From sequence record PZ445527.1: a DNA stretch of 64,000 nt. One strand, given 5' to 3'. A program made the translations under genes and the position numbers. Position 1 is the first letter of the stretch. Each line of letters begins with the position of its first letter. The notes under the pieces are model-generated. The model was not told the DNA's origin. It ran no database searches and saw only the letters and a program-made list of their open reading frames with translations. Positions 16,212-38,747 of this stretch are shown here, piece by piece. This DNA is from a phage.

Positions 16212-16236
16212 ATTTTATTTCCTATTTAAGTTAATT

Positions 16237-16313: not shown

Positions 16314-16424
16314 AATTGAAAACTCGCAGGGTTAGCGAAACCATCCTCAATTAGCATGTTCTAGAATACTAATCAAGTTATCTCCTATTGCACGCAGCTC
16401 AAGACGAGTACGAATTTTCAATTG

Positions 16425-16531
16425 TGGCGGCTCTCAGAAACTCTTCTATTCTAGCCTCAGAAGCTTACCCCCGAACGCATGTCGGGAAAGTCTTTCCAAG
16501 CGCATCAAATAGCACCGTTACACTTTGAGCC
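16425..16531 (-). ncRNA. 107-nt structured RNA with a tRNA-like GGCTC/GAGCC terminal stem and encoded CCA
   Basis: No cloverleaf can be drawn. Internal hairpins GGAAA-GAC-TTTCC and CTTCT-11 nt-AGAAG. It sits in tRNA-gene spacing between tRNA-His and tRNA-Ser. Confidence 0.4.
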
Positions 16532-16679
16532 ATTGATGTATCAAGGAATAGAAGGACTTGAACCTTCATGAGTTAGACCATTTAACTCAACCGCTTTTTA
16601 GGGTATATTTCTAGGAGTGGATGTTCCTAGTAAACCTATTCGGCAGTCCCGTCTACCAATTCCGGCATATTCCAAGATT

Positions 16680-16774
16680 TGGAGGTAGGTAAGGGGATCG
16701 AACCATTACACCGTATCACTACGGTCAACCGATTTCAAGTCGGAGTCCATCGCCAGCCGTTGGATTGACCTACC
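16680..16774 (-). tRNA. tRNA-Ser(UGA), class II
   Basis: Acceptor GGTAGGT/ACCTACC, anticodon loop CTTGAAA, variable arm ACCGTA-GTGA-TACGGT, T loop TTCGATC, encoded CCA. Confidence 0.85.
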
Positions 16775-16786
16775 TTATAAATTGTT

Positions 16787-16871
16787 TGGTGGGTTAGGAG
16801 AGACTCGAACTCTCACGCACTTAAGCAAGGGCTTCTAAGACCCTCGTGGCTACCAATTACACCACTAACCC
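16787..16871 (-). tRNA. tRNA-Leu(UAG), class II
   Basis: Acceptor GGGTTAG/CTAACCC, 3-bp D stem, AGGGT-CTTAGAA-GCCCT, GAGAG-TTCGAGT-CTCTC, encoded CCA. Confidence 0.9.
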
Positions 16872-16877
16872 CTAATT

Positions 16878-16952
16878 TGGTGGACAGTAGGAGAGTCGAA
16901 CTCCTCACTCCTGAGTGCAAGTCAGGTATTTTCCCAGATAAACTAACCGCCC
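16878..16952 (-). tRNA. tRNA-Ala(UGC)
   Basis: Acceptor GGGCGGT/ACTGTCC (with G:U pairs), CCTGA-CTTGCAC-TCAGG, AGGAG-TTCGACT-CTCCT, encoded CCA. Confidence 0.9.
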
Positions 16953-17191
16953 AAATTCTTTAATTTACTAAGGCTATTAGCTCGGCGTAACTACAGCACC
17001 TTCGCTTCAAGCGGAAGGAACCGCGTCATCTCGCAAACCCAATACACTATTCAGTTGCCGCTGAATCTAGTGGACTAATCTAGAACTTCTCCCGAGTCGT
17101 AGGGATCGTGCTTTTTGGCAGCCAGTCCTAGGTCGAGCTAATACCTTAGTGAATTATGATGAGGATTTCTCCCATATCAATTTATATAAAT

Positions 17192-17220
17192 ATTATAACA
17201 AGAAATTAATCATCAAGCAA
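17192..17220 (-). promoter_or_regulatory. T5-type early promoter (TTGCTT-17-TATAAT) driving a leader RNA and the Ala-Leu-Ser tRNA cluster
   Basis: Hexamers and spacer read directly. No long ORF lies downstream, only a 9-codon mini-ORF and structured RNA. Confidence 0.75.
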
Positions 17221-17238
17221 TTGAGTTTTTCTTGAAAT

Positions 17239-17314
17239 TGGTAGCGGGTTCCAGTACTGCCCTGGACTTACTTAGCTTATGAGACTAAGAAGAACTCTAT
17301 GCCTTCCACCCGCA
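17239..17314 (-). tRNA. tRNA-Met/Ile2(CAU)
   Basis: 76 nt: acceptor (T)GCGGGT/ACCCGC(T), TTAGT-CTCATAA-GCTAA, T stem TCCAG/CTGGA with a non-canonical loop GGCAGTA, encoded CCA. Confidence 0.6.
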
Positions 17315-17320
17315 ATTGTT

Positions 17321-17445
17321 TGGTTATTCTAGACAGGATTCGAACCTGTTATCACTTGTGCGGACTTACGAGAACCATTCTTTCACTCGAATCGAACGAG
17401 CTTCTGCCCTAGCCAAGCTGGTTTCCCCATCAACCACGCTAGAAT
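17321..17445 (-). ncRNA. oversized (about 121-125 nt) tRNA-like gene with a nested extra T-arm
   Basis: Perfect acceptor ATTCTAG/CTAGAAT, D arm TGGT-10 nt-ACCA and T arm ACAGG-TTCGAAT-CCTGT enclose about 67 nt, including a second CTCG-TTCGATT-CGAG hairpin. Confidence 0.35.
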
Positions 17446-17567
17446 GTTTGATTGTTTTCAGTGCAAGAGTCCGAGTCTTGGACACGACCGTTTCGCAAGT
17501 ACATAGGCAGCTTATCATGAGTCAGCACTTCCGAATTGCTAGCCCCGTGTTCTGCACTGAAATTTTA

Positions 17568-17915
17568 TTAGTTTAACCGTAAAGTATTATCTAATTCACC
17601 ATTAATTGTTCGGCATTCCTCTGGAATTGCTGGTGTGGCCTTGTATTCCCACCACTCAGCACCATCATATTCCCCACGTTCTAGCCAAGTTCCGTCGGCA
17701 AACCATACATTACCATAAAGTAATTGTCCACCGTATCCAGAATCATACTCAAAGTCTAGGTTATCAAGAAAATCCTCAATATCTTCTTCTGTATAGCCTA
17801 AAGGTAATACCCAAACTTTTTTATCCCCATAATACCCGAATTCTATTTTAATACACTTAATTTTAGAATTGGTATTTTTTAAGGCAAGTAACAACTCTTC
17901 TTTAGCATTACGCAT
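17568..17915 (-). CDS. hypothetical protein (115 aa)
   Basis: Minus-strand ORF between tRNA genes; acidic and Trp/Tyr-rich. Confidence 0.55.
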   Translation of the reverse strand: MRNAKEELLLALKNTNSKIKCIKIEFGYYGDKKVWVLPLGYTEEDIEDFLDNLDFEYDSGYGGQLLYGNVWFADGTWLERGEYDGAEWWEYKATPAIPEECRTINGELDNTLRLN

Positions 17916-17940
17916 AGTATATTCTCATACTGAATTAATT

Positions 17941-18017
17941 TGGCGCGACTGATGGGATTTGAACCCACATTCCCTCCCGTGATAGGGGAGTACCATTACC
18001 AAGCCAGCCACGGTCGC
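17941..18017 (-). tRNA. tRNA-Asp-type with anticodon AUC (A34)
   Basis: Acceptor GCGACCG/CAGTCGC, CTCCC-CTATCAC-GGGAG, GTGGG-TTCAAAT-CCCAT, encoded CCA. The loop differs from the Asp CTGTCAC loop only at position 34. Confidence 0.7.
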
Positions 18018-18026
18018 ATAATTTAT

Positions 18027-18212
18027 TTACTCAGCTTTGAGTTTTTCAATAGCTGCATTAAGTTCTTTAAGAAACTCTTTTCGTACATTAAGACGATTGA
18101 GACTTACTAGTATATCATGTTTAAGTTCTTCGATGTATTTCTTCTCAACTTCAATATTGTTGATAGTGCTATCACGATGAACTTCTAGCTGCGCAATCAC
18201 ATTCTTGGACAT
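18027..18212 (-). CDS. hypothetical coiled-coil protein (61 aa)
   Basis: Minus-strand ORF between tRNA genes. Confidence 0.45.
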   Translation of the reverse strand: MSKNVIAQLEVHRDSTINNIEVEKKYIEELKHDILVSLNRLNVRKEFLKELNAAIEKLKAE

Positions 18213-18314
18213 GCTTGTTTCCTCAGTTATTAATGAAAATGGTATCTGTGGCTGAATTAGATGTCAGCAATGATAGCTGGTTGGCTACCGGTTTACTTAA
18301 CTCTACACAGAATT

Positions 18315-18397
18315 TGGCGGGCCGTGTAGGATTCGAACCTACGTTGTCTTTCGACACGGATTAACAATCCGCCGCCAAACCGCTTGGCTAACGACCC
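18315..18397 (-). tRNA. tRNA-Asn(GUU) with a long variable region (83 nt)
   Basis: Acceptor GGGTCGT/ACGGCCC, D arm GCCA-AGCGGTT-TGGC, GCGGA-TTGTTAA-TCCGT, 13-nt variable region GTCGAAAGACAAC, GTAGG-TTCGAAT-CCTAC, encoded CCA. Confidence 0.75.
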
Positions 18398-18552
18398 TAA
18401 AAAATTTATATTGCTGACTAGGGTTTTCACCTAGACGGAGTTAGCACCGTAGCGTGTAGCGGCATACCTCTCCAAACCGTGCCTCATCTTTCAATTACGG
18501 AGACAGTGTTCCTACGCGTGCCTGAATTGATTTAACAATTCTTTCAGCAAAT

Positions 18553-18628
18553 TGGACGACCGCATGAGGATTGAACTCACATAAAAAGGATTTGCAATCC
18601 TTCGCCTAAGCCATTCAGCCAACGGTCG
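18553..18628 (-). tRNA. tRNA-Cys(GCA)
   Basis: Acceptor CGACCGT/GCGGTCG, AAGGA-TTGCAAA-TCCTT, GTGAG-TTCAATC-CTCAT, encoded CCA. The 5' 14 nt overlap the end of ORF 18615..18806. Confidence 0.85.
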
Positions 18629-18806
18629 ATTTATCTTGTTTTTCGAGATCTTCAAACTCTAAATCATTGAAGTTCCCTAGAGTACGGGTATAGAACCCAT
18701 CCCCTGCGTCATAGCCTGATTTACCACAATCACACATTTTAAATTCGCGCAGGTGTGTGAAAACATGTTCAGAACCACAACACTTAAATCTAACTAATCG
18801 TTTCAT
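18615..18806 (-). CDS. zinc-finger protein (63 aa)
   Basis: First ORF after promoter 18835..18863, with CC...CDC cysteine pairs. The stop lies inside tRNA-Cys. Confidence 0.55.
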   Translation of the reverse strand: MKRLVRFKCCGSEHVFTHLREFKMCDCGKSGYDAGDGFYTRTLGNFNDLEFEDLEKQDKSTVG

Positions 18807-18834
18807 TAGCTTCTCCAGTTCAATTTATGTAATT

Positions 18835-18863
18835 ATTATATAGAACTTTTGGGAACTAAGCAA
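18835..18863 (-). promoter_or_regulatory. T5-type early promoter (TTGCTT-17-TATAAT)
   Basis: Hexamers and 17-nt spacer read directly. Confidence 0.75.
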
Positions 18864-19128
18864 CTACATTTTTTAAGAATTTGATGCCTTTCTTTTTCTT
18901 CTTATATTTCCACGTTAATGGATTCTGTCGATTATGAACGCTTGAGATCTTTGTCTCGTCAAAGTTCTTCAATATCATGTAATCACAAGATAATTGTTCT
19001 AGTGGAATGTGATCACCGTCAAAAGCGTATACATAAGGCTGTTGACTAGCACGATAATGATAGACTTTGTTAATTCTACGTTTCAGCGACTTATCCGCGC
19101 AGTAAATAAAGAAGTTTTAAGGGTGCAT
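18856..19128 (-). pseudogene. ORF interrupted by an in-frame TAA after codon 3
   Basis: AAGGAG-ATGCTG-ATG CAC CCT TAA, then 86 further sense codons open in the same frame (NFFIYCADKSLKRRINKVYHYRASQQPYVYAFDGDH...) before the terminal TAG. No alternative start follows the stop. Confidence 0.5.
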
Positions 19129-19145
19129 CAGCATCTCCTTCAATT

Positions 19146-19229
19146 TGGTGCATCGTGCTGGATTTGAACCACCAACCCCGAAGGGCACGGATTTACAGAC
19201 CGCTGCAATAGCCATTCTGCCAACGATGC
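19146..19229 (-). tRNA. tRNA-Tyr(GUA), class II
   Basis: Perfect acceptor GCATCGT/ACGATGC, anticodon loop CTGTAAA, variable arm CCC-TTCG-GGG, T loop TTCAAAT, encoded CCA. Confidence 0.85.
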
Positions 19230-19292
19230 ACATTTAAAAGTATTCAAATACTAGTTTAAACACTTTTAAATATGTTTCCAAATTAGATAACT

Positions 19293-19321
19293 ATTATACC
19301 AAGTTTTAAGGCACTGAGCAA
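19293..19321 (-). promoter_or_regulatory. T5-type early promoter (TTGCTC-17-TATAAT) upstream of tRNA-Tyr
   Basis: Hexamers and spacer read directly. The -35 box is embedded in the 3' arm of a 12-bp hairpin (GCACTGAGCAAG...). Confidence 0.65.
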
Positions 19322-19357
19322 GTCAGATTTTGAAGAACTTGCTCAGTGCTGTATTAG

Positions 19358-19642
19358 TTAGTCGAACTTAGGAGTGACAGATAAGGAGAACGGAAGTTCA
19401 AAAACTTCTTCACCCTCATTACTAACGGTAACTACACGACCTTTAAGTTCAGACATTAAAATATCAATATCAGCTTTTGCATCTGGAGCCATGCCAGCTT
19501 CAATACATTTAGCTTTAACTTCCGGTAAAAGCTCTACGTTATAGAGATAGAGCCACTCAATCTCACCTTCCCAGTCTTCCCAGTCTTCCCAGGATTTGCA
19601 GATTGCACTTTCAATACCAGTTGCTACAACACGATTTTGCAT
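19358..19642 (-). CDS. hypothetical acidic protein (94 aa)
   Basis: First ORF after promoter 19673..19702, with RBS GAAGGAG. Confidence 0.6.
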   Translation of the reverse strand: MQNRVVATGIESAICKSWEDWEDWEGEIEWLYLYNVELLPEVKAKCIEAGMAPDAKADIDILMSELKGRVVTVSNEGEEVFELPFSLSVTPKFD

Positions 19643-19672
19643 TCGTTAACTCCTTCATCAATTTATATAACT

Positions 19673-19702
19673 ATTATACCAGAAATTTAAAGCAAAAGGC
19701 AA
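19673..19702 (-). promoter_or_regulatory. T5-type early promoter (TTGCCT-18-TATAAT)
   Basis: Hexamers read directly; 18-nt spacer. Confidence 0.65.
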
Positions 19703-19732
19703 GTACATTTTTAAAAATTCTGTTTGGAGGAG

Positions 19733-19939
19733 CTAAACTCCAGATTCTTCTGCCAAGTCTAGACTAATAAGAGTTATAGCCATAATTGCTGCACCGTGTT
19801 CTTTTTCTCCGGTGTTTTTAGCAGAGTCTATAATATCCTTAATCTGTTCGTAATAACTTTTTACTTCTTGTTCAATGCCTGCCTCGGCTATCATGCCTTT
19901 AGTCATGAGTCGTTGCATGGTAATTTCAGTATTAGCCAT
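19733..19939 (-). CDS. hypothetical protein (68 aa)
   Basis: Minus-strand ORF with an ATGGCTAA overlap with the upstream small ORF. Confidence 0.5.
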   Translation of the reverse strand: MANTEITMQRLMTKGMIAEAGIEQEVKSYYEQIKDIIDSAKNTGEKEHGAAIMAITLISLDLAEESGV

Positions 19940-20099
19940 GTTGTTTCTCCAGTTTCATTTTTAATAGTTTACAAATGAAATCAACGTCTTCATCCGTGCC
20001 TAGATCTCTATCTTCAAGGGTTGCCTTGAAATTTTTTGTTAGTTCCATAAGAATAACTTCCCTGGAACGACGTGTTGGCGGGGGTGGATGTCTATACAT
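19932..20099 (-). CDS. hypothetical small protein (55 aa, not in the ORF track)
   Basis: AAGGAAATAAG-ATG directly downstream of tRNA-Met. The frame is open to the overlap with the next gene. Confidence 0.4.
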   Translation of the reverse strand: MYRHPPPPTRRSREVILMELTKNFKATLEDRDLGTDEDVDFICKLLKMKLEKQHG

Positions 20100-20114
20100 C
20101 TTATTTCCTTAATT

Positions 20115-20189
20115 TGGTGGGTCGGAGGAGAATCTAACTCCTACTCGTTAGCTTATGAGGCCACCGCTTTAACTTTAAGCTACCGACCC
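20115..20189 (-). tRNA. tRNA-Met(CAU)
   Basis: Acceptor GGGTCGG/CCGACCC, D arm GCTT/AAGC, anticodon loop CTCATAA, AGGAG-TTAGATT-CTCCT, encoded CCA. Confidence 0.75.
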
Positions 20190-20195
20190 TATGTT

Positions 20196-20284
20196 TGGCG
20201 GAAGAAGTGGGAATCGAACCCACAAGGCTATATTTCAAACCGACAGATTAGCAATCTGCTGCAATACCGTTATGCTATTCTTCC
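20196..20284 (-). tRNA. tRNA-Ser(GCU), class II
   Basis: Perfect acceptor GGAAGAA/TTCTTCC, GCAGA-TTGCTAA-TCTGT, long variable arm, GTGGG-TTCGATT-CCCAC, encoded CCA. Confidence 0.85.
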
Positions 20285-20298
20285 GAATTTATAAATAT

Positions 20299-20327
20299 AT
20301 TATATTAGAAATTTAGCTTCATAGCAA
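20299..20327 (-). promoter_or_regulatory. T5-type early promoter (TTGCTA-17-TATAAT) for the Ser/Met tRNA pair
   Basis: Hexamers read directly. The -35 box and part of the spacer lie inside the last codons of ORF 20305..20823. Confidence 0.7.
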
Positions 20328-20823
20328 GAAAATTTTTCAAGTTTTCGGTAGACATCTCATCCACATCTACAGGAGAAACAAATCCATTTAATTGTCTAGC
20401 AAATTTTTTACCAGCAGGATCATTATCCCCAACAGCTACCAATTTAAAAGGTAGTAATTTCAATTGCTTTAATAGCGCTTTTCCTGGAGAAGAACCCAAC
20501 ATTGCCAAGGCTGGATAACCAGCGTTATGTAACGCAACTGCCTTAAATACAGATTCAGCAATCAATACCACTTTTTCATCTCCATTGAGAGTTTCTAGTC
20601 CCCATACACACTGTGTAGTAGAATAAGTAAAATATCTAGCTTCAAAGGGGCACTTACCATGACCTTTTGGAGCAGAAGGATTATAAGTCTGATAGCCTCT
20701 CAACATCCCAGAGAAGTCATACAATGGGACTGTTAGCCATCCTTCCGGGCTTAACCAGCAATGATATTTATCTGTATCAAACCCTCTAGATAAGAGATGT
20801 TCTGTTAGTTCATCAACAGTCAT
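20305..20823 (-). CDS. Toprim-domain protein (172 aa)
   Basis: Toprim-like signature: conserved Glu (LIAESVFKA) and DxD (AVGDNDPAGKKFA). Confidence 0.6.
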   Translation of the reverse strand: MTVDELTEHLLSRGFDTDKYHCWLSPEGWLTVPLYDFSGMLRGYQTYNPSAPKGHGKCPFEARYFTYSTTQCVWGLETLNGDEKVVLIAESVFKAVALHNAGYPALAMLGSSPGKALLKQLKLLPFKLVAVGDNDPAGKKFARQLNGFVSPVDVDEMSTENLKNFLAMKLNF

Positions 20824-20859
20824 ATTTGATCCCCTAGTTAGTTGTATAAATACATTATA

Positions 20860-20896
20860 CAGAAAAGCCCTGCGCTCTCCAGTGAACGCAGGGCTT
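20860..20896 (-). terminator. rho-independent terminator
   Basis: AGCCCTGCG-12 nt-CGCAGGGCT stem followed by TTTTCTG, then a TATAAT -10 box. Confidence 0.8.
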
Positions 20897-20919
20897 ACTT
20901 CGAATATTACGTGTGGGTA

Positions 20920-21867
20920 TTACTTGTTACGCATATCCATAATCATTTGGCCATCGTAACCAGTGCCAACCACAGTCTGCGGTACACCACCTTGATACTT
21001 CTGAGCACGAATCATTTCAACTTCTAGTTGCTTCCAGCGAATCATCTCAGGAGTAATGGTACGTTGCAGAGCGGCGTTAGCTTCAGCTTCTTTCTTAGCT
21101 GCGTACAGTTTAGCATCTGCATCACGTTCGTTTGCAATAGCTTGGTTGTTACGAGCTTCACGATCTGCTTCTGCTTGTTTAACCTTCTGCTGTGCTTCTT
21201 GTTCAACACGAGCCAACTCAGCTTTCGCAGCATTAACTTGTTCTTCACGAACTTTGGTATTCTGTACCTGTTCCATGATTACAGGCGGCAAAGTAATATC
21301 CTGAAGGAACACTTGCTTAACTGTGTAACCATAAGGGCGTGCATACTCTTCAACTTCCTGTTGAATTGCAGTTTGCAATTGAGCCTGAATTTTAGCATCA
21401 AACAAATCTTGTGCTTTAGGTACAGACTTACCAAACTCACGAATAGTAGACAGTAATTTTTCAGTTACATACTTGTCTAGTGCCTGATCCTGAGTACCTG
21501 CATTAATACGGTTAATCGGTGCCTTAGAACCATCAAACTGCAACATAACAGTCAGGTCAACAGTGGATTTAAACTTATCCTGACTAGGAACCTGAAGTTT
21601 ATCTAATTTTACAGCAATATCTTTTGTACTGAAAGTATCGAAAGATGCAAACGGGTTTACAATATGGAAACCAGGTAATACTGGATTAGGGTCTACTTTA
21701 CCAAGAAATGTTTGGGTTTTAACCGTACCATCAGAAACAATAGTATATGAATTAAAAGCTAGGATTAAACCTGCTAAACCAACTACAGCACCAATACCCC
21801 AACGTTTAATAGTACGGATTACTTTCTGCTCAGAAGTCAGTTCTTTCATATTTTTAGTAGCAAACAT
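20920..21867 (-). CDS. SPFH/band-7 (prohibitin/HflC-like) membrane protein (315 aa)
   Basis: N-terminal TM helix, an SPFH-like core and a long Ala/Glu/Gln coiled coil. Strong E. coli-type codon bias. Confidence 0.7.
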   Translation of the reverse strand: MFATKNMKELTSEQKVIRTIKRWGIGAVVGLAGLILAFNSYTIVSDGTVKTQTFLGKVDPNPVLPGFHIVNPFASFDTFSTKDIAVKLDKLQVPSQDKFKSTVDLTVMLQFDGSKAPINRINAGTQDQALDKYVTEKLLSTIREFGKSVPKAQDLFDAKIQAQLQTAIQQEVEEYARPYGYTVKQVFLQDITLPPVIMEQVQNTKVREEQVNAAKAELARVEQEAQQKVKQAEADREARNNQAIANERDADAKLYAAKKEAEANAALQRTITPEMIRWKQLEVEMIRAQKYQGGVPQTVVGTGYDGQMIMDMRNK

Positions 21868-21901
21868 ATATTTCCTTTGTTTTAGTTACAGTTAATAAAA
21901 T

Positions 21902-21976
21902 TGGCCGAGGTGACAGGATTCGAACCTGCATAAAGGAATTTAGAAGACTCCTGCCTCTCCCTTAGACTACACCCCG
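21902..21976 (-). tRNA. tRNA-Arg(UCU)
   Basis: Acceptor CGGGGTG/CACCTCG, GGAGT-CTTCTAA-ATTCC, GCAGG-TTCGAAT-CCTGT, encoded CCA. Confidence 0.85.
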
Positions 21977-23798: not shown

Positions 23799-24620
23799 TT
23801 AAAATAGATCATATTCTAATCTATTGGGATTTTCTCGGTATCCATAAGACGTAAGAGTACCCCTCATATACTCTGCGTCAACAGGATTAGATGTTACTAG
23901 AACCACTTTTAGTGGTCTTTGACCTAAAAATAGTATATGATCTAATAAGTCTTTTCCTTGTACCTCTGGATCTCCTAAATCTGAGTCCATAAATAAATAG
24001 GATCCTGTGAAACTAAATATATCTGATAGTTCCAGCGCACCTATAACTGTACGACAAATAATGGACATTTCAGGTAGATCTCTAACATCGTCTATTAGAA
24101 TATTGGTCTGCTTCCCAATTTCTGCATTACATAAACCATTTACTAGTTTTTCTCTTTCCCCTTTAGCTTGTTCGAAAGTGGTGAAGCCAGGAGATACGAA
24201 AAACTTTCCACCTAATGTAATGCTATACACAAAACCCTCTGGGAGTAGTTCTACACCTACGGTTTTATTAGTATTAATCCTATTTAACTTAAAATTTGTC
24301 TCTCTTAGATTAATAATTCTGTTATCCCACGGTATAGTATTTATATGGTCGATCATATAAGGCGGCTCTTCACCATAATGGAGCAACCACGCTATTCGGT
24401 GTCCATAAATAATTGTGGGTTTATTATCTAAGAGCAAACTAACTCTGATGTACCCATCAGAGTTCTTACTACATATTTCTCTCCCAGCATATAGGGTGTG
24501 CCAAGTTTTATTCTTGTATTTATTAGGCTTATAAAATAATTTACCGGTATAAGGATTATACTCTATAATTTCTCGAATATAATCTATATATGGTAGTATT
24601 TGTTTTTGTAATTTACCCAT
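23799..24620 (-). CDS. HNH homing endonuclease fused to a receiver-like C-terminal domain (273 aa)
   Basis: The N-terminal half has an HNH_3-type motif (IDHINTIPWDNRIINLR). The C-terminal 90 aa has a DxDLG-type block (LFMDSDLGDPEVQGKDLL). Confidence 0.65.
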   Translation of the reverse strand: MGKLQKQILPYIDYIREIIEYNPYTGKLFYKPNKYKNKTWHTLYAGREICSKNSDGYIRVSLLLDNKPTIIYGHRIAWLLHYGEEPPYMIDHINTIPWDNRIINLRETNFKLNRINTNKTVGVELLPEGFVYSITLGGKFFVSPGFTTFEQAKGEREKLVNGLCNAEIGKQTNILIDDVRDLPEMSIICRTVIGALELSDIFSFTGSYLFMDSDLGDPEVQGKDLLDHILFLGQRPLKVVLVTSNPVDAEYMRGTLTSYGYRENPNRLEYDLF

Positions 24621-26008: not shown

Positions 26009-26710
26009 TCAAATTTTCATTTTTTCGATCATAGCTGCAACACAATAGCTCTCAACTAAGGCATCGAATGCTGGGTCATGTTTAACTGGGTAGATCCCAT
26101 AACGAATGGTGTCCATCTTCTCCATTTTAGCTTTTGCCCAGCTAATCCCCTCTGCTTCTAGGTCTTTGTAGTTATAACCAGCCTGCATCCAGAGATTGCG
26201 GAGAGATCGAACATTACCCAAGTTCCAGAATTTCCACGGAACTATTTCTTCATTGGTTCCAGCATGGAAAGTGTTTGCAGAGTAGATAGTCATATCAAAC
26301 TCTGGGCCGTTGCCATAATACAAAGCATTCTCTCCTAGAGCCAACTCCATAATATTTTGAGCCATAGAGTAAGCAGCATAGTTAGAGCCGAGTTTATTAG
26401 TACAATGATGTTTACCGTTTTGGAATGCAATCAGCTTTGGATTACGTTCGTTCATAGCTTCCATAATGTGGAGAGCAGACGGACTATTTTTAGCTTGATC
26501 CATCCAGAATGCTAGAGTAGATGCTGTAACTTTAGCACCAGAATTAAACTGATCTTGCACATCCAAAGTAACAAATACTAGATCAGGATCTTTATCAATT
26601 CCGTGCATAGCCACAAAAGCGAAAGAAGGCATTGCGATATGAGTAGTACCACAATCTCCTGGAGTTCCTAGAGATTCAATATCTAGCATACCAAATGGTT
26701 TTACTTTCAT
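26009..26710 (-). CDS. DEDDh-type 3'-5' exonuclease (233 aa)
   Basis: Exo I motif MLDIESLG and a C-terminal H-x4-D (KHDPAFDAL), consistent with the DnaQ-like fold. Confidence 0.6.
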   Translation of the reverse strand: MKVKPFGMLDIESLGTPGDCGTTHIAMPSFAFVAMHGIDKDPDLVFVTLDVQDQFNSGAKVTASTLAFWMDQAKNSPSALHIMEAMNERNPKLIAFQNGKHHCTNKLGSNYAAYSMAQNIMELALGENALYYGNGPEFDMTIYSANTFHAGTNEEIVPWKFWNLGNVRSLRNLWMQAGYNYKDLEAEGISWAKAKMEKMDTIRYGIYPVKHDPAFDALVESYCVAAMIEKMKI

Positions 26711-27280: not shown

Positions 27281-27796
27281 TTACTTCGCTTTACGTTTAC
27301 GAGCTGGTTTAGCAGATTTACGAGCAGAATCACCCGTGAACTTAATGCCTACACCGTAACACAGAGCACGAACATTATCTTTACTATACTCTACGCCAAA
27401 GATATTTGGCTTAACAGAACCAAACTGTCCACGAGTATCACGCAATACATCTGCCGTTGGTTTGCGTTTCTGGTTAACTGCTTTCTCGTAATCTTTCATG
27501 GCCATGCCATTACGAGGGAACAATTCTGCTCCAGCATTGAAACTCAGTGCTACGGGAACAGATTTGTGACCGTAACCCTGTACATAGGTCACAAGGCGGG
27601 TTACAGAACGAGTAGCATTCTTAGCCTTCGGCTTTTGACGAATCGGAGCCGGACGATTCAGTGCCTGTGCAGCTTGAGCATCAGTAGGGTGCTTGCGCAG
27701 GTGGCGTTCCAGACGAGCTTTGCGGTTAGCCTCAGTCTGAGGGAAAGTTTTAACTGTAGTAGCTGCTTGAGTTTTTGCGTTTTTCTGCTTAGCCAT
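27281..27796 (-). CDS. highly basic putative nucleic-acid-binding protein (171 aa)
   Basis: First ORF after promoter 27835..27863. Lys/Arg-rich termini and optimised codon use. Confidence 0.6.
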   Translation of the reverse strand: MAKQKNAKTQAATTVKTFPQTEANRKARLERHLRKHPTDAQAAQALNRPAPIRQKPKAKNATRSVTRLVTYVQGYGHKSVPVALSFNAGAELFPRNGMAMKDYEKAVNQKRKPTADVLRDTRGQFGSVKPNIFGVEYSKDNVRALCYGVGIKFTGDSARKSAKPARKRKAK

Positions 27797-27834: not shown

Positions 27835-27863
27835 ATTATACGGTAATTTGAAGCGTTTAGCAA
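27835..27863 (-). promoter_or_regulatory. T5-type early promoter (TTGCTA-17-TATAAT)
   Basis: Hexamers and spacer read directly. Confidence 0.75.
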
Positions 27864-27871: not shown

Positions 27872-28321
27872 TTAATTTATTAACTGTAAGCTTCTTTTAA
27901 TTTCAGACCTTACCTGCATCAAAAGAACTCCTAAAGTATTGTCCCCGATGCCTCGGCAAACACCCCAATATGTATCTCCCCAGGTATTTCCTTCGATCAA
28001 AGTTGCATTTTTTGTTGCTAACAGTTTGTCCCTCAAATCAGGGATTGCAAACTTTAACCGTAAAAGCTCTAGCATTACGTCATCTTTTACCTTATCCCAG
28101 TCAGAGCGCAGAGTTAATTTACGTCCCCTACGTTTGGCAACTCCTGCATTTAGGGAGCGCAGTACATGAGCTACATCATCTTTTTGGTCGGATTTCATAG
28201 CCTGAAAAGCATGTTCTACAGTATCAGCATGCCATATCTCATTTAGATATTCGAAAGTAATTGGTGATAAATAAAAGTTAGATAAAAAACTATAAGTACC
28301 TTTAAATTCAGTAATCTTCAT
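27872..28321 (-). CDS. NADAR (YbiA/DUF1768) domain protein (149 aa)
   Basis: Family hallmarks YSFLSNFYLSP...VEHAFQAMK...GNTWGDTYWGV. Confidence 0.75.
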   Translation of the reverse strand: MKITEFKGTYSFLSNFYLSPITFEYLNEIWHADTVEHAFQAMKSDQKDDVAHVLRSLNAGVAKRRGRKLTLRSDWDKVKDDVMLELLRLKFAIPDLRDKLLATKNATLIEGNTWGDTYWGVCRGIGDNTLGVLLMQVRSEIKRSLQLIN

Positions 28322-28602
28322 TTTTTACGCCCCGCATCTTTAGCCTCCTCGGCTGTATAGATATACTGATAAGCCCCTTTGGAGTAGGCTGGAGCAGTAC
28401 ACATTTTCTTACGCTCAATCTCTTCTTGAGCTTTTCTTTCGCGTTCAGCTAATTCTTCATCCAGATAAACTAAACGTTGTTCTGGAGGAGGTGGAAGACG
28501 TGTTTCTGGCTCACCAATATTAGCCTTTCTTATTTGACGAGGTGATTGTGCACGTTTTCTCAACGGTTTAAATCCTAATGAATTTGAGTTATAAATTCGC
28601 AT
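28318..28602 (-). CDS. hypothetical basic protein (94 aa)
   Basis: First ORF after promoter 28630..28658, with RBS GAGGAGGG. Confidence 0.55.
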   Translation of the reverse strand: MRIYNSNSLGFKPLRKRAQSPRQIRKANIGEPETRLPPPPEQRLVYLDEELAERERKAQEEIERKKMCTAPAYSKGAYQYIYTAEEAKDAGRKK

Positions 28603-28678: not shown

Positions 28679-29155
28679 TCACATCTCGGCAAGTTCTTGC
28701 TCAGTAATAACAGTATTACATAATGCGTCAACTTCTTCATTACCTCTAATACCTGAGTGCCCTTTAACCTTAATAAAGGTAGGGTTAGTATTATGAAAAT
28801 TAATATACTGTTGGGTTAGTTTAAATGCTTCTTGCCATAGTTCTAAATTGAGAGGAGCTTCACCATCTCCCTTCTTCCAGCCTTTCTTCTGCCAAGACCA
28901 CATCCAGCTTTCCATACCATTTTTACAGTATGCAGAATCAGTGTAGATTATAACTGGACGTTTATCATTCTTAGTAGCCCAGCGCAGAACTTCAACAATA
29001 GCTGTAAGTTCCATTTCATTGTTTGTGGTTTTTGGACTGAAACCCGACTTAGAACCCAAACGTTCGTCATTAGGATCATAAACTACGAAACCCCAAGCAC
29101 CTAAACCAGGATTACCTTTACAAGCCCCATCTGTATATATATGAAATGTACTCAT
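28679..29155 (-). CDS. rnh: ribonuclease H (RNase HI type, 158 aa)
   Basis: RNase HI motifs IYTDGACKGNPGLGAWG, NNEMEL, YTDS and a C-terminal GN..D. Confidence 0.85.
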   Translation of the reverse strand: MSTFHIYTDGACKGNPGLGAWGFVVYDPNDERLGSKSGFSPKTTNNEMELTAIVEVLRWATKNDKRPVIIYTDSAYCKNGMESWMWSWQKKGWKKGDGEAPLNLELWQEAFKLTQQYINFHNTNPTFIKVKGHSGIRGNEEVDALCNTVITEQELAEM

Positions 29156-29694
29156 TTATTAAGTTCCTCTAAAATAGGGGGTGGTTTTGTGGAATCAAAA
29201 GTTTCTATAACAGCGTTTTTACCGTGTAACTGTAGACGAAGTTCATTGGCACATTGAATGGCGGATTCTAGGTCTTTGTACTCAAAATAACCACCATATA
29301 CTGACTTTTTATCGGAGTCTCTAACATGTACTTGCCATTTCTGATTTTGCCTATTCCAGCTAATTCCTAGATAACCAGATTTACTTCTAGTGGTTTTATT
29401 TCTCTGATTCTCTTGGTAATTAGATTTCCTGAGATTAATCCATCTATTATCATCTCGTATGCGGTTTATGTGGTCTACCATTTCCGGTAGATAGCCTTCC
29501 ATATAGAGAAATGCTAGCTGATGCGCATAATATGGATTTTTATCCACGGATATAGTTATATATCCGTCTTTTCTTAGATGACCAGCAATACTTCCTATTT
29601 TTCCGTTTCTACCCCTGACTCCCGTCCTTCTAGTAAATATTCCGGTATCGGGGTTATAATCGAATAGTTCTTTTAATCTTTCTTGTGTGATCAT
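29152..29694 (-). CDS. HNH homing endonuclease (MITQERLKEL family, copy 2)
   Basis: Same N-terminus, HNH motif (VDHINRIRDDNRWINLR) and C-terminal ...EELNK as copies 1 and 3. ATGA overlaps on both sides. Confidence 0.8.
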   Translation of the reverse strand: MITQERLKELFDYNPDTGIFTRRTGVRGRNGKIGSIAGHLRKDGYITISVDKNPYYAHQLAFLYMEGYLPEMVDHINRIRDDNRWINLRKSNYQENQRNKTTRSKSGYLGISWNRQNQKWQVHVRDSDKKSVYGGYFEYKDLESAIQCANELRLQLHGKNAVIETFDSTKPPPILEELNK

Positions 29695-32755: not shown

Positions 32756-33247
32756 TTATAAACTATCAAGCTCCAATAGTTTAGCATCACGCCATTCTAT
32801 AGCATCCTCTAATTCTTTAAATGTTTTTGTATATTTTACGCCTTTACGAGCTATCTGGACTTGATATGATCCACTAGCTTTTTGATGAATATTTTTAATA
32901 CCTAGCTTATTGTCTTTATGCGCCCCGACATTCTTTCCGTTACTGAATCTATCAGAAGCTACTAGGTTAATAGCTCTATTATCATGTCGTATTCTATTAT
33001 CGTGGTCTACTTCAGGTGGCAGATACCCATGAATTTTAGCAAAGATTACCCTATGGGCTAAGTAGGGGTATCCTTTAATATTTAATACTATATATCCTGT
33101 AGATTTATCTAAGGAGCCTGCTGGTTTTCCGGCATATTTGGTATTAAATGTTTTATTATCTCTAGGTCTATGAGTCAATATTCCAGTATATGGATCATAA
33201 TCAAATAATTTAGCTACCTCTAGATGATCTTCTAATGTTTTTGACAT
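32756..33247 (-). CDS. HNH homing endonuclease between nrdA and nrdB (about 163 aa)
   Basis: HNH_3 motif VDHDNRIRHDNRAINL plus an AP2-like C-terminal half. The track ORF starts at 33262, but MSKTLEDH at 33247 is more likely. Confidence 0.8.
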   Translation of the reverse strand: MSKTLEDHLEVAKLFDYDPYTGILTHRPRDNKTFNTKYAGKPAGSLDKSTGYIVLNIKGYPYLAHRVIFAKIHGYLPPEVDHDNRIRHDNRAINLVASDRFSNGKNVGAHKDNKLGIKNIHQKASGSYQVQIARKGVKYTKTFKELEDAIEWRDAKLLELDSL

Positions 33248-33311
33248 AATTATAATTTCCAACCAATTAGTATAAAAATAAGAGGGTTATAATTAACCCT
33301 CTTTACTAGTT

Positions 33312-36300
33312 TTATAAGGTGCAGCCACCTGAAGAACATCCTGTAGTTTCTCCAGCTCCTCCACCATTCGCAGTGTTAAAGTTAGCATAATACCAGGTTT
33401 TTATACCATACTTAACCGCAGTCATAAAGTCACGAACTACTACTGGGCCAGGGATGATTTCATTCTCGAATTTAGAGTAATCATAATACATCTGGAAACT
33501 TGATGACTGACTCAAGAATTTTTGGTAAACGGCGTTCCACTTGATCCACTCAATACGATCTACATCATAGGCCAGTTTATAGCTCATGAGAGTATCCCAA
33601 TCAGTTGCACCTGGGGCAATTGCAATTACTTTATTCACTGCACTACCCTTGATAGATACAATCTTACGAGGTGGTTCAATAGAGTTAGTAACGCCTAACA
33701 GAACAGAGGAACTTTCTCCCGGCATCTGCGCAGTCAGAACAGAGTTACGCATACCGTATTTCAGAATGTCTGCACGCAGAGATTCCCAATCCATTTCTAG
33801 ACCTACGGATACCAGCTCATCAACAGTTTTCTTATACGTGTCGATTACCAGAATTCCTTTGGATGGTTTAGTACGATTAAACCATTCACATGCACCTTGT
33901 TCTTTAGCCAGACGTACAGAGGCTTTATGTAGGAAGTAAGACAGTTTTTCAGCTTCACGATGAATCCAGTTACGTGCTTCAACGCCTTCATAAGCCAAAC
34001 CTTCCGCCGCCATTGCACCTGCTGCGTTCATCAGACCAATACCAACATTACGACGTTTCTTAGCCGTATATTCCATAGTTGGGAACGGATAATCCTGAAT
34101 TTCAATGATGGTATCAACGAATTTCAGGAGGATGTAGCAAGTTTTCTCCCACTCAGCCAGAGATTCCATGCGTCCTAGTACAACACCACCTAAGTTACAC
34201 AGAGATACTTCACCAATATCCTCTGGCTTCATTTGATCAAGCTGCTCTTTTGTCTTATACAGCTCTGTGATATGATGGAACGGGCGTGTAGGCTGAGTAA
34301 TTTCTACACAGTTACCCGCTAAAATGCCATTAAATACACCTAAGTTTAATTTAGGTTCTGTAAAGCAATAAGTATCACTAATACGACCAGTAAACTCAAC
34401 GTTAGTTACAGTTACAAAACGGGTTGCGTCTCTATTGGGGCGTGTTAGGTTTAAGAGTTTCTCTTTATCCAAAGAGAGTCCTAAATCTTTAAGTTTCCAG
34501 AAGCCACTACTCCCCACAATAAGCCTACTAGTCTCCTTGCAGTGGTATAGTTTACTAGTACCAGTACCATCTGGTAACTCGTGGTCACCTTCTTTGCGTC
34601 CTAAAATAATCTTGCTAGTAACCCCCAATTCTAGTAACAAATCCTTCACTTTACTTAGAAAATCAGGCTCTGCCGAAGCAACCACAATACTAGGAGTTGT
34701 GCCATTTTTCTGTATGCAGCCATCTGCATCTAAATATCCCTCTAACCATTTGATACGGCTATCAATAGTATACTCTGGGCCAGGTACAAAATACTTCGGC
34801 ATTAAATCAGACTTAACAATATAGCTCAGTCTACCTGTGCTGTCCAGTAATCCACTTCCCTGAATTTCTGCGTCAATTTTATCCACTAATGGTAGTTTGC
34901 CACCTTTTTCATAGAAGTACAGCTTAGGTTCTCCATGTCTTCCATAAGTTCCATCTCCAGTGAAGAAACCGTTAGTATAAGGAGATTTTAGTACCATATT
35001 TCCATGATCTACAATAGGATTACTAAATTTAGGCATTTTCATACCTACTTGCAAGTCTACTGCTCGTACCTCTTCTAGCCCCTGTTTGAAAGAGGTACGA
35101 CGATCCTCTCTGACATATTTGGGCTGGTGGTAGAACTTATGATAAAGAGTAGATTCAATAGTAGATCCATCAGAGAATGTGATTTTTATCAACTCCTGAG
35201 CTTCCCCAGTTTTAGTAGGGATAACTGTTGACCATTCTTGTCCGTTCCAAATCTCTACTTCTTTACCAACTAAATCAATAATCTCTATGTTACCATTTTT
35301 GGTTAAAATTTTTGTTTCTGGAGCTACACAAAGGTTTGTCATACGGATTGGATCAAGGAAGTTACCGTGACGATTAGATTCCCCGATGTGGTGCGCATAC
35401 ATACGTCCTGTTTCCATTCGGATACGTAGCCAAGTATCTAGGATTTCTTTTGCAGAGACTTTAGGAGCTGCTGGAACTGTTTTTCCTTCGTGGTCGATCT
35501 TTGTAAGAGATGCCACACGTTTCTCCGCTGCCACGTAGATTTCTTCAAATTTAGCCTCGTCATCACTATAAAACGCTTCATGAACTTCTGGAGCATAGAA
35601 GTATGACATTAGCGTAATATCTTCATTTTTCAGATAACGTTTTAACAAAAGATTGTTGAAGCTCAGAGAATAATCCATCTTATCAATTTTATTCTCGTCT
35701 GTAGCACGTTGTTGCTTAACCTGCATCAACTGAATGATTTCAGGGTCAAAGTATGGATAAGACACTGTAGCAGAACCACCACGAGTTTGCTGAGTATTGG
35801 CCTTTACTGAGCGATCAATGTGTCGATAATATGGCAGTTTTCCGGAATGCGGGAATGCCCCATTTCGCACCGGATCAGCAATTGATCTGCTTTCAAGATG
35901 ATACCCGATTCCCGCTCTGGCTGCAACCATTTTGAAGACGATGTGCTCGGCGGTGTCGATTGAATCCAACGTGTCAGTGGAATCCACGAGGCAGCAACTA
36001 GCAAATCCACGGTCACTAGAGCGCAGACCAACCAGTGGCGGCGTAGGAACGTTGATTTTGTGGAGCGACATTGCGTTGTAGAGGTCGATTGCATCTAGAA
36101 TTGTCCAGTTAGGTTGAGATAACATCGCCATTGCCATACCCATGTAGGCAAACTGCGGAGTTTCATAAATTTCACCAGTGGCTATGTTGCGGCGGGAATA
36201 CTTATCAAAGAACTGCTTCAGTCCACCACTAGTAAAAAGACGGTCACGATCATGGTCGATAACCTGATTCAGAGCTTCAAATTGCTCATCGGTAATCCAT

Positions 36301-36659
36301 GCACTCATGTCTTCCCATGCACCTACGCTAACCATGTGGTCATGGAAGAAGCGCAGAGAAGGTGGTTCGAAGGAATCATAAAGGCGTTTACGCATTTGCG
36401 CAAGACGTAATTCCTTTGCTGGCACATCGTATGCTGGGTTATCTTTGATAAGGCTTTCAGCAGCCTTAATTAATGCGTCCATCAGAGTGTCGGAATCTAC
36501 AACCCCTTTAGGCAGAGTTTTTTGAGCAGCCATAGTAATGGCTGACCAACTTACATCAACTGTTTTGCAACCATACTCTGCCCAACCATTGAGTTTTTCA
36601 GGAGCAAAGTCTTCTACAGTACCGTCACGTTTAATTACTTTTTCAATGCGATGGCTCAT
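33312..36659 (-). CDS. nrdA: ribonucleotide reductase class Ia alpha subunit precursor containing an intein (1115 aa; about 775 aa after splicing)
   Basis: ATP-cone (VIKRDGTVEDF), RNR barrel motifs and a C-terminal CSSGGC redox pair. Start at ATG 36659 after AAGGAAAA; the track ORF extends to 36764 across the promoter. Confidence 0.9.
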   Translation of the reverse strand: MSHRIEKVIKRDGTVEDFAPEKLNGWAEYGCKTVDVSWSAITMAAQKTLPKGVVDSDTLMDALIKAAESLIKDNPAYDVPAKELRLAQMRKRLYDSFEPPSLRFFHDHMVSVGAWEDMSAWITDEQFEALNQVIDHDRDRLFTSGGLKQFFDKYSRRNIATGEIYETPQFAYMGMAMAMLSQPNWTILDAIDLYNAMSLHKINVPTPPLVGLRSSDRGFASCCLVDSTDTLDSIDTAEHIVFKMVAARAGIGYHLESRSIADPVRNGAFPHSGKLPYYRHIDRSVKANTQQTRGGSATVSYPYFDPEIIQLMQVKQQRATDENKIDKMDYSLSFNNLLLKRYLKNEDITLMSYFYAPEVHEAFYSDDEAKFEEIYVAAEKRVASLTKIDHEGKTVPAAPKVSAKEILDTWLRIRMETGRMYAHHIGESNRHGNFLDPIRMTNLCVAPETKILTKNGNIEIIDLVGKEVEIWNGQEWSTVIPTKTGEAQELIKITFSDGSTIESTLYHKFYHQPKYVREDRRTSFKQGLEEVRAVDLQVGMKMPKFSNPIVDHGNMVLKSPYTNGFFTGDGTYGRHGEPKLYFYEKGGKLPLVDKIDAEIQGSGLLDSTGRLSYIVKSDLMPKYFVPGPEYTIDSRIKWLEGYLDADGCIQKNGTTPSIVVASAEPDFLSKVKDLLLELGVTSKIILGRKEGDHELPDGTGTSKLYHCKETSRLIVGSSGFWKLKDLGLSLDKEKLLNLTRPNRDATRFVTVTNVEFTGRISDTYCFTEPKLNLGVFNGILAGNCVEITQPTRPFHHITELYKTKEQLDQMKPEDIGEVSLCNLGGVVLGRMESLAEWEKTCYILLKFVDTIIEIQDYPFPTMEYTAKKRRNVGIGLMNAAGAMAAEGLAYEGVEARNWIHREAEKLSYFLHKASVRLAKEQGACEWFNRTKPSKGILVIDTYKKTVDELVSVGLEMDWESLRADILKYGMRNSVLTAQMPGESSSVLLGVTNSIEPPRKIVSIKGSAVNKVIAIAPGATDWDTLMSYKLAYDVDRIEWIKWNAVYQKFLSQSSSFQMYYDYSKFENEIIPGPVVVRDFMTAVKYGIKTWYYANFNTANGGGAGETTGCSSGGCTL
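34311..35330 (-). mobile_element. intein (340 aa) with a LAGLIDADG homing-endonuclease domain, inserted in the NrdA catalytic N-L-C-x-E loop
   Basis: N-terminus MTNL|CVAPETKILT, C-terminus GILAGN|CVEITQPT. Dodecapeptide motifs NGFFTGDGTYG and LEGYLDADGCIQ. Confidence 0.85.
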
Positions 36660-36697
36660 TTGGTTTTCCTTTTTATAGTTATCAGGATTTAAGGAAT

Positions 36698-36726
36698 ATT
36701 CTACATTATTATTGGTCATTAGGCAA
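36698..36726 (-). promoter_or_regulatory. sigma70 promoter of nrdA (TTGCCT-17-TAGAAT)
   Basis: Hexamers and spacer read directly, between the terminator and the nrdA RBS. Confidence 0.6.
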
Positions 36727-36742
36727 ATAAAATTTTCTGATA

Positions 36743-36774
36743 GAAAAGGCCCGAGTATTTTCATACCCAGGCCC
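36743..36774 (-). terminator. rho-independent terminator
   Basis: A 10-bp stem GGCCTGGGTA/TACTCGGGCC (two G:U pairs), loop TGAAAA, followed by TTTTCT. Confidence 0.7.
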
Positions 36775-38081: not shown

Positions 38082-38747
38082 ATGGTAAGAAAGAAAATAA
38101 CTACAGAAGATGTGAACTTAGCACTTGCTCCCAGAGGAATAATTATGCTAAGCACGTATATATCAGCTAAATCCAATGCTATATTTAAGTGCTCTAATGG
38201 GCATAGTTGGGAGGCTAGAGTAGATAATGTAAAAGGTGGGAGAGGTTGCCCTTATTGTGCTAGTCGTACTTTAGATCTTAAAGAGGTAAATGAATCCTTA
38301 GCTGCTCGTGGAATAAAGATGGAAGGTAAATACATCAATTCTAAGAGTAAAATTATGTTCAGCTGTGAGAATGATCATAGGTGGGAGTCTACCCTTGATA
38401 GTGTTAGAAATCATAATTCTGGTTGTCCTATATGTTTATTAGAGAAGGATAATTATCCTACTAACGTATATATTTTAGTAAGTAGTATGGGAACCAAAAT
38501 AGGGATGTCTAGCAGAACTAAAGATAGACTCAGAGATATTAAAACTTCTTCTAACATACATGATTTAAAAATATTTAAGGAATATAGCTTTTCAGATAGA
38601 TCAAAAGCTGTGCGTATTGAAAGAGAAGCCCATTTACAGTTTAAGGAATATAATTGTCAGTACAAAGATTTTGATGGTGCTACAGAATTTTTTAGTATTG
38701 AGCCAGAAGTAGTAGCAAGGTTTATTGAGGAAATAATTAATGAATAA
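38082..38747 (+). CDS. T5orf172 (GIY-YIG-related) domain protein with two N-terminal zinc ribbons (221 aa)
   Basis: Duplicated C..H...C..C modules (CSNGHSWE...CPYC, CENDHRWE...CPIC), then VYILVSSMGTKIGMS...RLRDI...GATEFF. Confidence 0.7.
   Translation: MVRKKITTEDVNLALAPRGIIMLSTYISAKSNAIFKCSNGHSWEARVDNVKGGRGCPYCASRTLDLKEVNESLAARGIKMEGKYINSKSKIMFSCENDHRWESTLDSVRNHNSGCPICLLEKDNYPTNVYILVSSMGTKIGMSSRTKDRLRDIKTSSNIHDLKIFKEYSFSDRSKAVRIEREAHLQFKEYNCQYKDFDGATEFFSIEPEVVARFIEEIINE

Follow-up and report, generated by a model that had tools for sequence, protein, structure and literature searches.

A NADAR-type anti-DarT1 factor and a zinc-less sirtuin operon are probably independent early genes of a T5-like phage

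The NADAR protein found in the phages Bas32 and Bas33 has been named AdfN^Bas32 and was reported to neutralise DarT1 toxicity in E. coli with no other phage component present and to let RB69, T5 and Bas25 plate again on DarTG1 hosts, leaving DarTG2 (thymine) defence unaffected (Johannesman, Awasthi, Carlson & LeRoux, Nat Commun 2025; PMC11825919). E. coli YbiA hydrolyses guanine-linked ADP-ribose (guanine-ADPr) in vitro, yet it does not protect cells from DarT1. For phage sirtuins, a KptA/Tpt1-like part in RNA repair was predicted from the same gene contexts that we describe below (Iyer, Burroughs, Anantharaman & Aravind, Viruses 2022; PMC9503650), and our full-text searches of the literature brought up no experiments on the sirtuins of T5-type phages. 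Here we analysed a stretch of 64,000 nucleotides of phage sequence record PZ445527.1, one strand read 5' to 3' and called the window throughout, which carries both a NADAR gene and a Sir2 gene. A first-pass annotation had joined these two genes into an NAD/ADP-ribose toolkit. We instead consider it probable, at roughly 85%, that they are two independent early genes of a T5-like phage, an AdfN anti-DarT1 factor and a T5.102-type sirtuin/HAD module, and not one system.

The window derives from a T5-like phage (Tequintavirus), with a 16-kb stretch around both genes that is 91-94% identical to hundreds of Tequintavirus and other T5-like genomes and with the gene order of the T5 early region. As had been noted in the first pass, the two genes lie on two arms. 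The NADAR gene belongs to the minus-strand early arm together with RNase H, thyA, frd, nrdB, nrdA and phoH, and the Sir2 gene to the divergent plus-strand arm, which starts at nrdD and continues through the sirtuin to the origin-binding protein, helicase, split NAD-dependent ligase, primase and polymerase. The two are 13 kb apart, in divergent transcription units on opposite strands, and their phyletic patterns differ, the sirtuin being near-universal among T5-like phages and the NADAR gene being confined to about 22% of T5-like records. We also assembled 55 related Sir2 loci from IMG/VR, each with a flank of 10 kb on either side, screened them against profiles of NADAR, HAD, cREC, RNA ligase, kinase, metallophosphoesterase and DUF7415, and found NADAR within 10 kb of Sir2 in 0 of the 55. 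Because the T5-like NADAR site lies about 13 kb away, beyond that flank, the case for independence in these phages rests on the presence/absence counts. The Sir2 neighbourhood of phage muut (Justusliebigvirus) held neither NADAR nor informative domains.

The NADAR open reading frame (ORF), first picked out by its NADAR/YbiA signature, matches Pfam NADAR (PF08719) at E = 6.3e-22 and 79 bits, against a cut-off of 35.1, over profile positions 9-163 of 163, and the motifs SFLSNFY, EHAFQAMK and EGNTWGDTYWG are all present. By tblastn its product is identical at 149/149 residues to the NADAR of Escherichia phage HildyBeyeler (MZ501074), which is BASEL phage Bas33, and at 147/149 to bas32_0066 of IrisVonRoten (Bas32, MZ501075; locus 21642-22091). 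The window is in this respect another isolate with the Bas33 allele at the same locus, and no functional difference from AdfN^Bas32/Bas33 is expected. Johannesman et al. (PMC11825919) call the Bas32 and Bas33 NADARs identical; the GenBank records differ at two residues.

In the solved Phytophthora PnNADAR, ADP-ribose is contacted by E43, K50, K75, R79, W89, R93, E125, D130 and W133 (Schuller et al. 2023). In the window protein these contacts fall, by HMMER alignment with 8BAU and 2B3W, on E36, K43, K63, R67, W75, K79, E110, D116 and W119, the E/K pair being placed through the motif register (E-x6-K in both proteins). One contact has changed from Arg to Lys (R93 to K79), and the equivalent of PnNADAR E125 is the YbiA-type Glu, E110. 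The closest solved structure by sequence is E. coli YbiA (2B3W, 2.8e-15), with which the window protein has the E...K and E/D/W motifs in common; against TIGR02464, the YbiA-type riboflavin-intermediate N-glycosidase family, it scores 66.8 bits, under the cut-off of 73.7. PADLOC returned a weak match alone (PDC-M42C, 6e-7).

AdfN^T4 (gp30.3) and the DarG1-type NADAR antitoxins share with the window protein the superfamily, the chemistry of guanine-ADPr hydrolysis and the logic of an orphan antitoxin. The window protein falls into a different NADAR clade, carrying the YbiA-type Glu where the phage-type proteins have His and the DarG1-type Asp, and the Bas32-type protein needs no other phage factor, whereas AdfN^T4 does. 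Neither hallmark of a DarG1-type antitoxin, an N-terminal extension and an operon with DarT1, is found here: the protein is a bare 149-residue domain, and no DarT or other ADP-ribosyltransferase (ART) toxin adjoins the gene, whose neighbours are the T5.090 homologue, DUF7022, RNase H and an HNH gene, although the whole window was not scanned for ARTs.

The gene sits in an accessory cassette. BLASTN homology to T5 ends at window position 27873 (T5 locus 8051) and restarts at 28364 (T5 locus 8098), and the site spans 46 bp in T5 and 490 bp in the window, where the insert replaces the 3' end of the T5.090 homologue. In T5 itself T5.089 and T5.090 are adjacent with promoter P-H207 between them and no NADAR gene, and in Bas32 the NADAR gene occupies the same locus as in the window, between the homologues of those two genes. 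Across the phage collection the site is filled in 96 records and shows a contiguous T5-type empty junction in 331, hence the figure of about 22%. The T5.090 homologue and the NADAR gene share 4 nucleotides, the stop of the former lying over the start of the latter; given this overlap, and given that the homologue occurs in T5 without NADAR, we read it as a context gene for transcription and translation and not as a specific partner.

We propose that the window NADAR is AdfN, an orphan antitoxin-like ADP-ribosylglycohydrolase produced early in infection. It would cut the N-glycosidic bond between ADP-ribose and guanine-N2, the adduct set by host DarT1 on single-stranded phage DNA, so that replication could continue in DarTG1-carrying hosts; DarT2 thymine adducts would not be acted on. 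That NADAR proteins hydrolyse ADP-ribosylated guanine in DNA, as the first-pass annotation had noted, is supported by the literature on the same protein, and identity and conserved residues mark the window gene as encoding a counter-defence enzyme of this activity. The counter-defence use that had been put forward for both genes divides: for NADAR it is more than plausible, because experiments exist for AdfN^Bas32, and for Sir2 we found no evidence of it, no defence-type model matching and the conserved neighbours being genes for RNA-end processing. T5, which lacks the NADAR gene and is DarTG1-sensitive, fits an anti-DarTG1 function, and the presence of the gene predicts that the window phage, unlike T5, should plate on DarTG1-carrying hosts, a prediction of use in selecting therapeutic or biocontrol phages. 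This reading of NADAR is already known, having been published for the same sequence, and the pair of genes matters little as a finding in itself; the NADAR is a further copy of a characterised anti-DarTG1 factor. In GenBank the gene goes by 'swarming motility protein' (YbiA), 'GTP cyclohydrolase II', 'riboflavin biosynthesis protein' and 'N-glycosidase', names that we treat as annotation noise because AdfN^Bas32 protects against DarT1 and YbiA does not.

The sirtuin ORF that had been reported from its motifs and catalytic His exists as well, although its start is better placed downstream. It matches Pfam SIR2 (PF02146; E = 2e-24, 87 bits, cut-off 24) and PHROG 2162 'Sir2' (E = 1e-119) and carries GAGLSVESGVRAFR and the catalytic His (HIHG, H118). 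Position 41348 merely opens the longest possible ORF and was rejected as the start; the GTG at 41363 is the likely one, because a GAGGAA Shine-Dalgarno sequence lies 7 nucleotides upstream and because in alignment it coincides with the ATG annotated in T5, Bas32 and Lindwurm. The protein is 93-96% identical to the Sir2 of those three phages (93% to the 'Sir2-like protein' T5.102), and T5-family genomes have carried the 'Sir2-like' annotation for years, so that this is a known, annotated gene with a published functional prediction. Using tblastn we found the clade in 998 phage records, comprising T5-like phages, Epseptimavirus, Klebsiella T5-like phages, rV5-like and phAPEC8-like myoviruses and jumbo phages. 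Among 5.8 billion proteins searched, 173 matched, on contigs that are typically 110-150 kb, phage-sized, and the clade is phage-only. In a comparison of 40 phage homologues, the most distant at about 55% identity, no variation was seen in GAGxS, the FR cofactor loop, Y-x-x-R, TTNVD, the catalytic HG, KPxVxFFGE, GxS or the VVN Asn. Selection maintains the ability of the enzyme to bind and use NAD+.

Closer comparison with CobB and human SIRT5, at about 25% identity, brought out both what the window sirtuin retains and what it has lost. E. coli CobB is its best PDB sequence match (1.6e-17) and the best Foldseek match of its AlphaFold2 (AF2) model (1.1e-17, TMt 0.85; model pLDDT 89.7), with Sir2Af1 and SIRT5 next in order. 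Residues for NAD binding and catalysis are conserved, and the segment FYNKRR aligns with CobB FYNARR, so that Y63/R66, invariant in the clade, correspond to Y92/R95 of the class III acidic-acyl pocket, a register that we cross-checked against the residues named in the titles of the 6RXM and 6RXS mutants. The Cys4 zinc site, by contrast, is missing from the whole clade, with no Cys aligning to the CobB zinc cysteines and C41 the sole invariant Cys. The GTSxxVxP motif, near-universal in deacylase sirtuins, reads GCSNQVIN, with its proline replaced. Against the CobB equivalogs (NCBIfam NF040867, NF001753 and related models) the protein reaches 88-100 bits where the cut-offs are 243-320, and no PADLOC model of a defence-type Sir2 (ThsA, DSR, SIR2-HerA, SIR2-Ago) matched it at E <= 0.01. 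It belongs to a CobB/SIRT5-like clade that keeps every NAD and catalytic motif but has lost the zinc module.

The first-pass statement that neither gene stands beside an obvious partner is wrong for Sir2, which is part of a conserved operon with HAD_SAK_2, as Iyer et al. (2022, PMC9503650) had also described. Bounded by terminator-like hairpins (Table 1), the operon runs from a T5.100 homologue through small ORFs to Sir2, a 60-residue ORF, HAD_SAK_2 and two DUF7415 paralogues, and T5 has the same layout from nrdD to the terminator; the window differs from T5 in a frameshifted HAD gene and in lacking T5.103. The sirtuin and Swiss-army-knife HAD neighbourhood of SP15-type phages can be likened to it (PMC9503650). 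The HAD_SAK_2 Pfam match (9.8e-11) covers profile positions 1-78 of 139 only. In DT57C, a viable T5-like phage, a chimeric remnant joins Sir2 residues about 172-216 to the HAD C-terminus; this deletion inactivates Sir2 and HAD together, and the module is therefore dispensable in the laboratory.

RefSeq labels the HAD gene T5.105 (T5 locus 19589-20095) 'Sir2 (NAD-dependent deacetylase)'. The apparent source is PHROG 18062, which matches one segment from Sir2 and another from HAD; the 'defective sir2' ORF of DT57C (locus 2480-2752) is composed in the same way, and the label looks like a propagating mis-annotation.

The same association recurs across several lineages with two different gene sets. 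In Salmonella phage S132, whose Sir2 is 50% identical, Sir2 is followed by HAD_SAK_2 and two DUF7415 genes, and in Erwinia phage KEY HAD_SAK_2 precedes it; a Klebsiella T5-like phage has only the two DUF7415 genes near Sir2, HAD being absent. In the Vequintavirus JeffSchatz a T4-Rnl1-type RNA ligase and a cREC protein precede Sir2, and a PNK-like kinase and a metallophosphoesterase are divergent. Among the 55 IMG/VR loci, HAD_SAK_2 lies within 2.5 kb of Sir2 in 29, and 12 further loci have a PNK-like kinase, accompanied in 11 of the 12 by a T4-Rnl1-type RNA ligase and a metallophosphoesterase and in 8 by cREC, directly upstream and on the same strand. Predicted RNA-repair neighbourhoods, taken as HAD_SAK or else RNA ligase, kinase, cREC and phosphoesterase, thus surround Sir2 in 41/55. 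The other 14 are without these RNA-end-processing genes (two have DUF7415 only, three only a nearby metallophosphoesterase), and NADAR occurs in none of them. DUF7415 lies downstream of Sir2 in 30/55, all of them nrdD-linked and T5-like. Since cREC stands beside Sir2 in rV5-like phages, the cREC_REC domain at the C-terminus of an HNH_3 ORF in the window indicates that T5-like phages hold this RNA-repair-associated domain elsewhere in the genome.

Table 1. Positions of the two genes and of associated features in the 64,000-nucleotide window.
Feature	Position	Strand	Basis or remark
NADAR-domain gene, 149 amino acids; predicted ADP-ribosylglycohydrolase, AdfN orphan anti-DarT1 factor	27872..28321	-	Pfam; identity to Bas33
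T5.102-type Sir2, zinc-less class-III-like phage sirtuin, 274 amino acids from GTG	41363..42187	+	Longest ORF from 41348 (279 amino acids)
Accessory cassette, 490 bp (0.49 kb) relative to T5; holds NADAR gene and replaces 3' end of T5.090 homologue	27874..28363		BLASTN against T5
T5.090 homologue, 94 amino acids, PHROG 4593, function unknown	28318..28602	-	Also in T5, without NADAR
Sigma-70-like promoter, TTGCTA-17-TATAAT	27835..27863	-	Just 3' of NADAR stop; matches T5 promoter P-H207
DUF7022 gene, driven by the P-H207 equivalent	27281..27796	-	
Terminator-like hairpin after nrdD, upstream limit of Sir2 operon	40595..40619	+	Equivalent T5 terminator and promoter annotated
First ORF of Sir2 operon	40687..41067	+	
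Small ORF between Sir2 and HAD, 60 amino acids, PHROG 5116	42178..42360	+	In Bas32 and T5 (T5.104); absent in Lindwurm
HAD_SAK_2 'Swiss-army-knife' RNA-repair type phosphatase gene, T5.105 homologue, frameshifted	42347..42854	+	Pfam; frame analysis
Two paralogous DUF7415 genes, T5.106 and T5.107 homologues, last of operon	42857..43285 and 43295..43681	+	
Terminator-like hairpin closing Sir2-HAD-DUF7415 operon	43705..43725	+	Equivalent T5 terminator
ORF of 273 amino acids, HNH_3 endonuclease with C-terminal cREC_REC (cyclic-phosphate-processing receiver)	23799..24620	-	T5 has a 105-amino-acid ORF here (T5.084)
NAD-dependent DNA ligase, split: LigA (adenylation + OB) and LigB (HhH + BRCT)	50240..51211 and 52003..52773	+	Split also in T5
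GIY-YIG ORF between the LigA and LigB parts	51189..51845	+	

Taken with the separation of the two genes, these neighbourhoods bear directly on the toolkit proposal, in which Sir2 would, for example, counter NAD-depleting or ADP-ribosylating defences and NADAR would clear the adducts. That both are NAD/ADP-ribose enzymes from early regions of one genome speaks for such coordination, as does the fact that rV5-like groups include NADAR members (Bas60-62) and members with this Sir2 clade. We nevertheless hold it to be very improbable, given the lack of physical linkage and the unequal distribution described above, the ability of AdfN^Bas32 to work alone in E. coli, the failure of Sir2 to fit any defence-type model and the little that a phage with an NAD-dependent DNA ligase would obviously gain from NAD+ consumption. 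Less probable still, to the point of being hardly credible, is a housekeeping role for the NADAR as a YbiA-type N-glycosidase in the detoxification of riboflavin-pathway intermediates, as many of the GenBank labels imply. The top PDB match to YbiA, the TIGR02464 score and the Glu at E110 all lean that way, but the score stays under the family cut-off, the near-identical protein neutralises DarT1 in vivo where E. coli YbiA does not, and a sporadic accessory gene of lytic phages suits defence evasion better than riboflavin housekeeping.

The sirtuin leaves more room for alternatives. We propose an enzyme that consumes NAD+, belongs structurally to the CobB/SIRT5 class and acts with the adjacent HAD phosphatase as a dispensable module. 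Its likeliest role, which gene context suggests at somewhat short of even odds, would be nucleic-acid (RNA) end repair, for instance NAD-dependent removal of 2'-phosphates through ADP-ribosyl transfer. A lesser possibility is a CobB/SIRT5-like lysine deacylase (deacetylase or desuccinylase) that resets the acylation of host or phage proteins, the HAD neighbour being unrelated; CobB, Sir2Af1 and SIRT5 are the top sequence and fold matches, and the catalytic His, Asn and Asp, the FGE substrate loop and the class III Y63/R66 pair are conserved, but the clade lacks the zinc site of canonical deacylase sirtuins (classes I-IV and U) and the GTSxxVxP proline, falls far short of all NCBIfam CobB cut-offs (for instance 100 bits where 243 are required) and shows linkage to genes for RNA-end processing in two distinct arrangements. 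Zinc-less Sir2 domains of prokaryotes are in many cases NADases, ThsA, DSR and SIR2-HerA among them, so that an NADase or a degrader of small-molecule signals, serving host shutdown or the destruction of NAD-derived immune signals, also comes into question. We rate this, or some other role, as improbable, since no PADLOC Sir2 model matches, the fold is nearest to deacylase sirtuins and the clade retains the Y-x-x-R pocket and FGE loop that bind substrate in those enzymes. The split DNA ligase of the phage, a third NAD+-using enzyme that the first-pass annotation had passed over, requires NAD+ and makes an NAD+-depleting Sir2 unattractive. Nor did we find support for the earlier suggestion that Sir2 rewires NAD metabolism, its conserved neighbours being RNA-end-processing genes; among the large ORFs in the left part of the window there was no NARP3-type NadR/PnuC (NAD-salvage counter-defence).

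Several observations pull against our reading of the two genes. The window and Bas33 NADAR differs from the deposited Bas32 protein by T9A and K104E, both outside the catalytic residues. The published tests of AdfN^Bas32 used ectopic expression, and the available passages of that paper report no NADAR deletion in Bas32 or Bas33 (PMC11825919); the in-vitro assay was on the T4 protein, AdfN^T4, and not on the Bas32 protein. NADARs can also remove cytidine-ADPr and cleave riboflavin intermediates, so that DarT1 may not be the sole natural target. For the sirtuin, sequence and fold favour a protein deacylase as much as context favours RNA repair, T5-like phages have no RNA ligase beside Sir2, and the 55 loci cannot be taken as phylogenetically independent, 23 of them being near-identical T5-like phages; with many loci being close relatives the counts overstate independence. 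The HAD gene of the window, moreover, carries a +1 frameshift in a G-run, ACAGGGGGGTGG, at about 42624-42632 (G6), which splits it into a 98-residue N-terminal part with the DIDG motif (42347..42643) and a C-terminal part in the next frame that extends to 42854. By megablast the 514-nucleotide window query corresponds to 513 nucleotides in every top match, the close relatives having one base fewer. Exact-match scans of IMG/VR gave zero matches for both the G6 and the G5 version of the site, because the relatives differ at a neighbouring base, and the frameshift could be either a homopolymer sequencing error or a recent real loss.

A sharper version of the RNA-repair reading can be put forward, though we think it doubtful in full: the T5.102-clade sirtuin would be a sirtuin-fold analogue of Tpt1/KptA that removes RNA 2'-phosphates, its conserved Tyr/Arg pocket holding phosphate and not a succinyl carboxylate, and with HAD, cREC, kinase and ligase proteins it would repair tRNAs cut by host anticodon nucleases. 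If true, the sirtuin fold would acquire a new catalytic use, and phage counter-defence a new form. The Sir2-HAD module is widespread, with about 1000 phage records holding this Sir2 clade and its catalytic residues strongly conserved, and the question, one for the T5/rV5 phage group as a whole, was raised in earlier literature. Because the RNA-repair idea was published as a prediction in 2022, only a demonstration would be new, and to demonstrate a sirtuin fold acting on RNA ends would be a real advance.

Other features of the window are independent of the two genes. The nrdA ORF (33312..36764, minus strand) encodes 1150 amino acids, against 776-811 in Lindwurm and T5, and holds a 1016-bp in-frame insertion relative to T5 at about 34311-35325 with a LAGLIDADG_3 domain at residues 672-758. 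We take the insertion to be a probable intein that houses a homing endonuclease, set in the large subunit of ribonucleotide reductase. An ORF of 221 amino acids (38082..38747, plus strand) with a treble-clef zinc finger and a T5orf172/MUG113 (GIY-YIG-like) domain sits in the divergent promoter region between phoH and nrdD, where T5 has only about 220 bp, and is probably a homing endonuclease too. Free-standing HNH_3 homing-endonuclease ORFs occur at 29152..29694, 32756..33262 and 5368..5907 (all minus strand) and at 47402..47974 (plus strand). Some of them occupy positions unlike those of the T5 heg genes, such as the one between RNase H and thyA, which T5 does not have; mosaicism of this kind is typical of the group. 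In the tRNA region (15619..21976, minus strand) 12 tRNA genes were detected, against about 27 annotated in the Bas32 stretch compared. Finally, the T5.087 homologue (26009..26710, minus strand), which relatives label 'exonuclease' or 'metallopeptidase', matches an Rv2179c-like 3'-5' exoribonuclease domain (3e-8).

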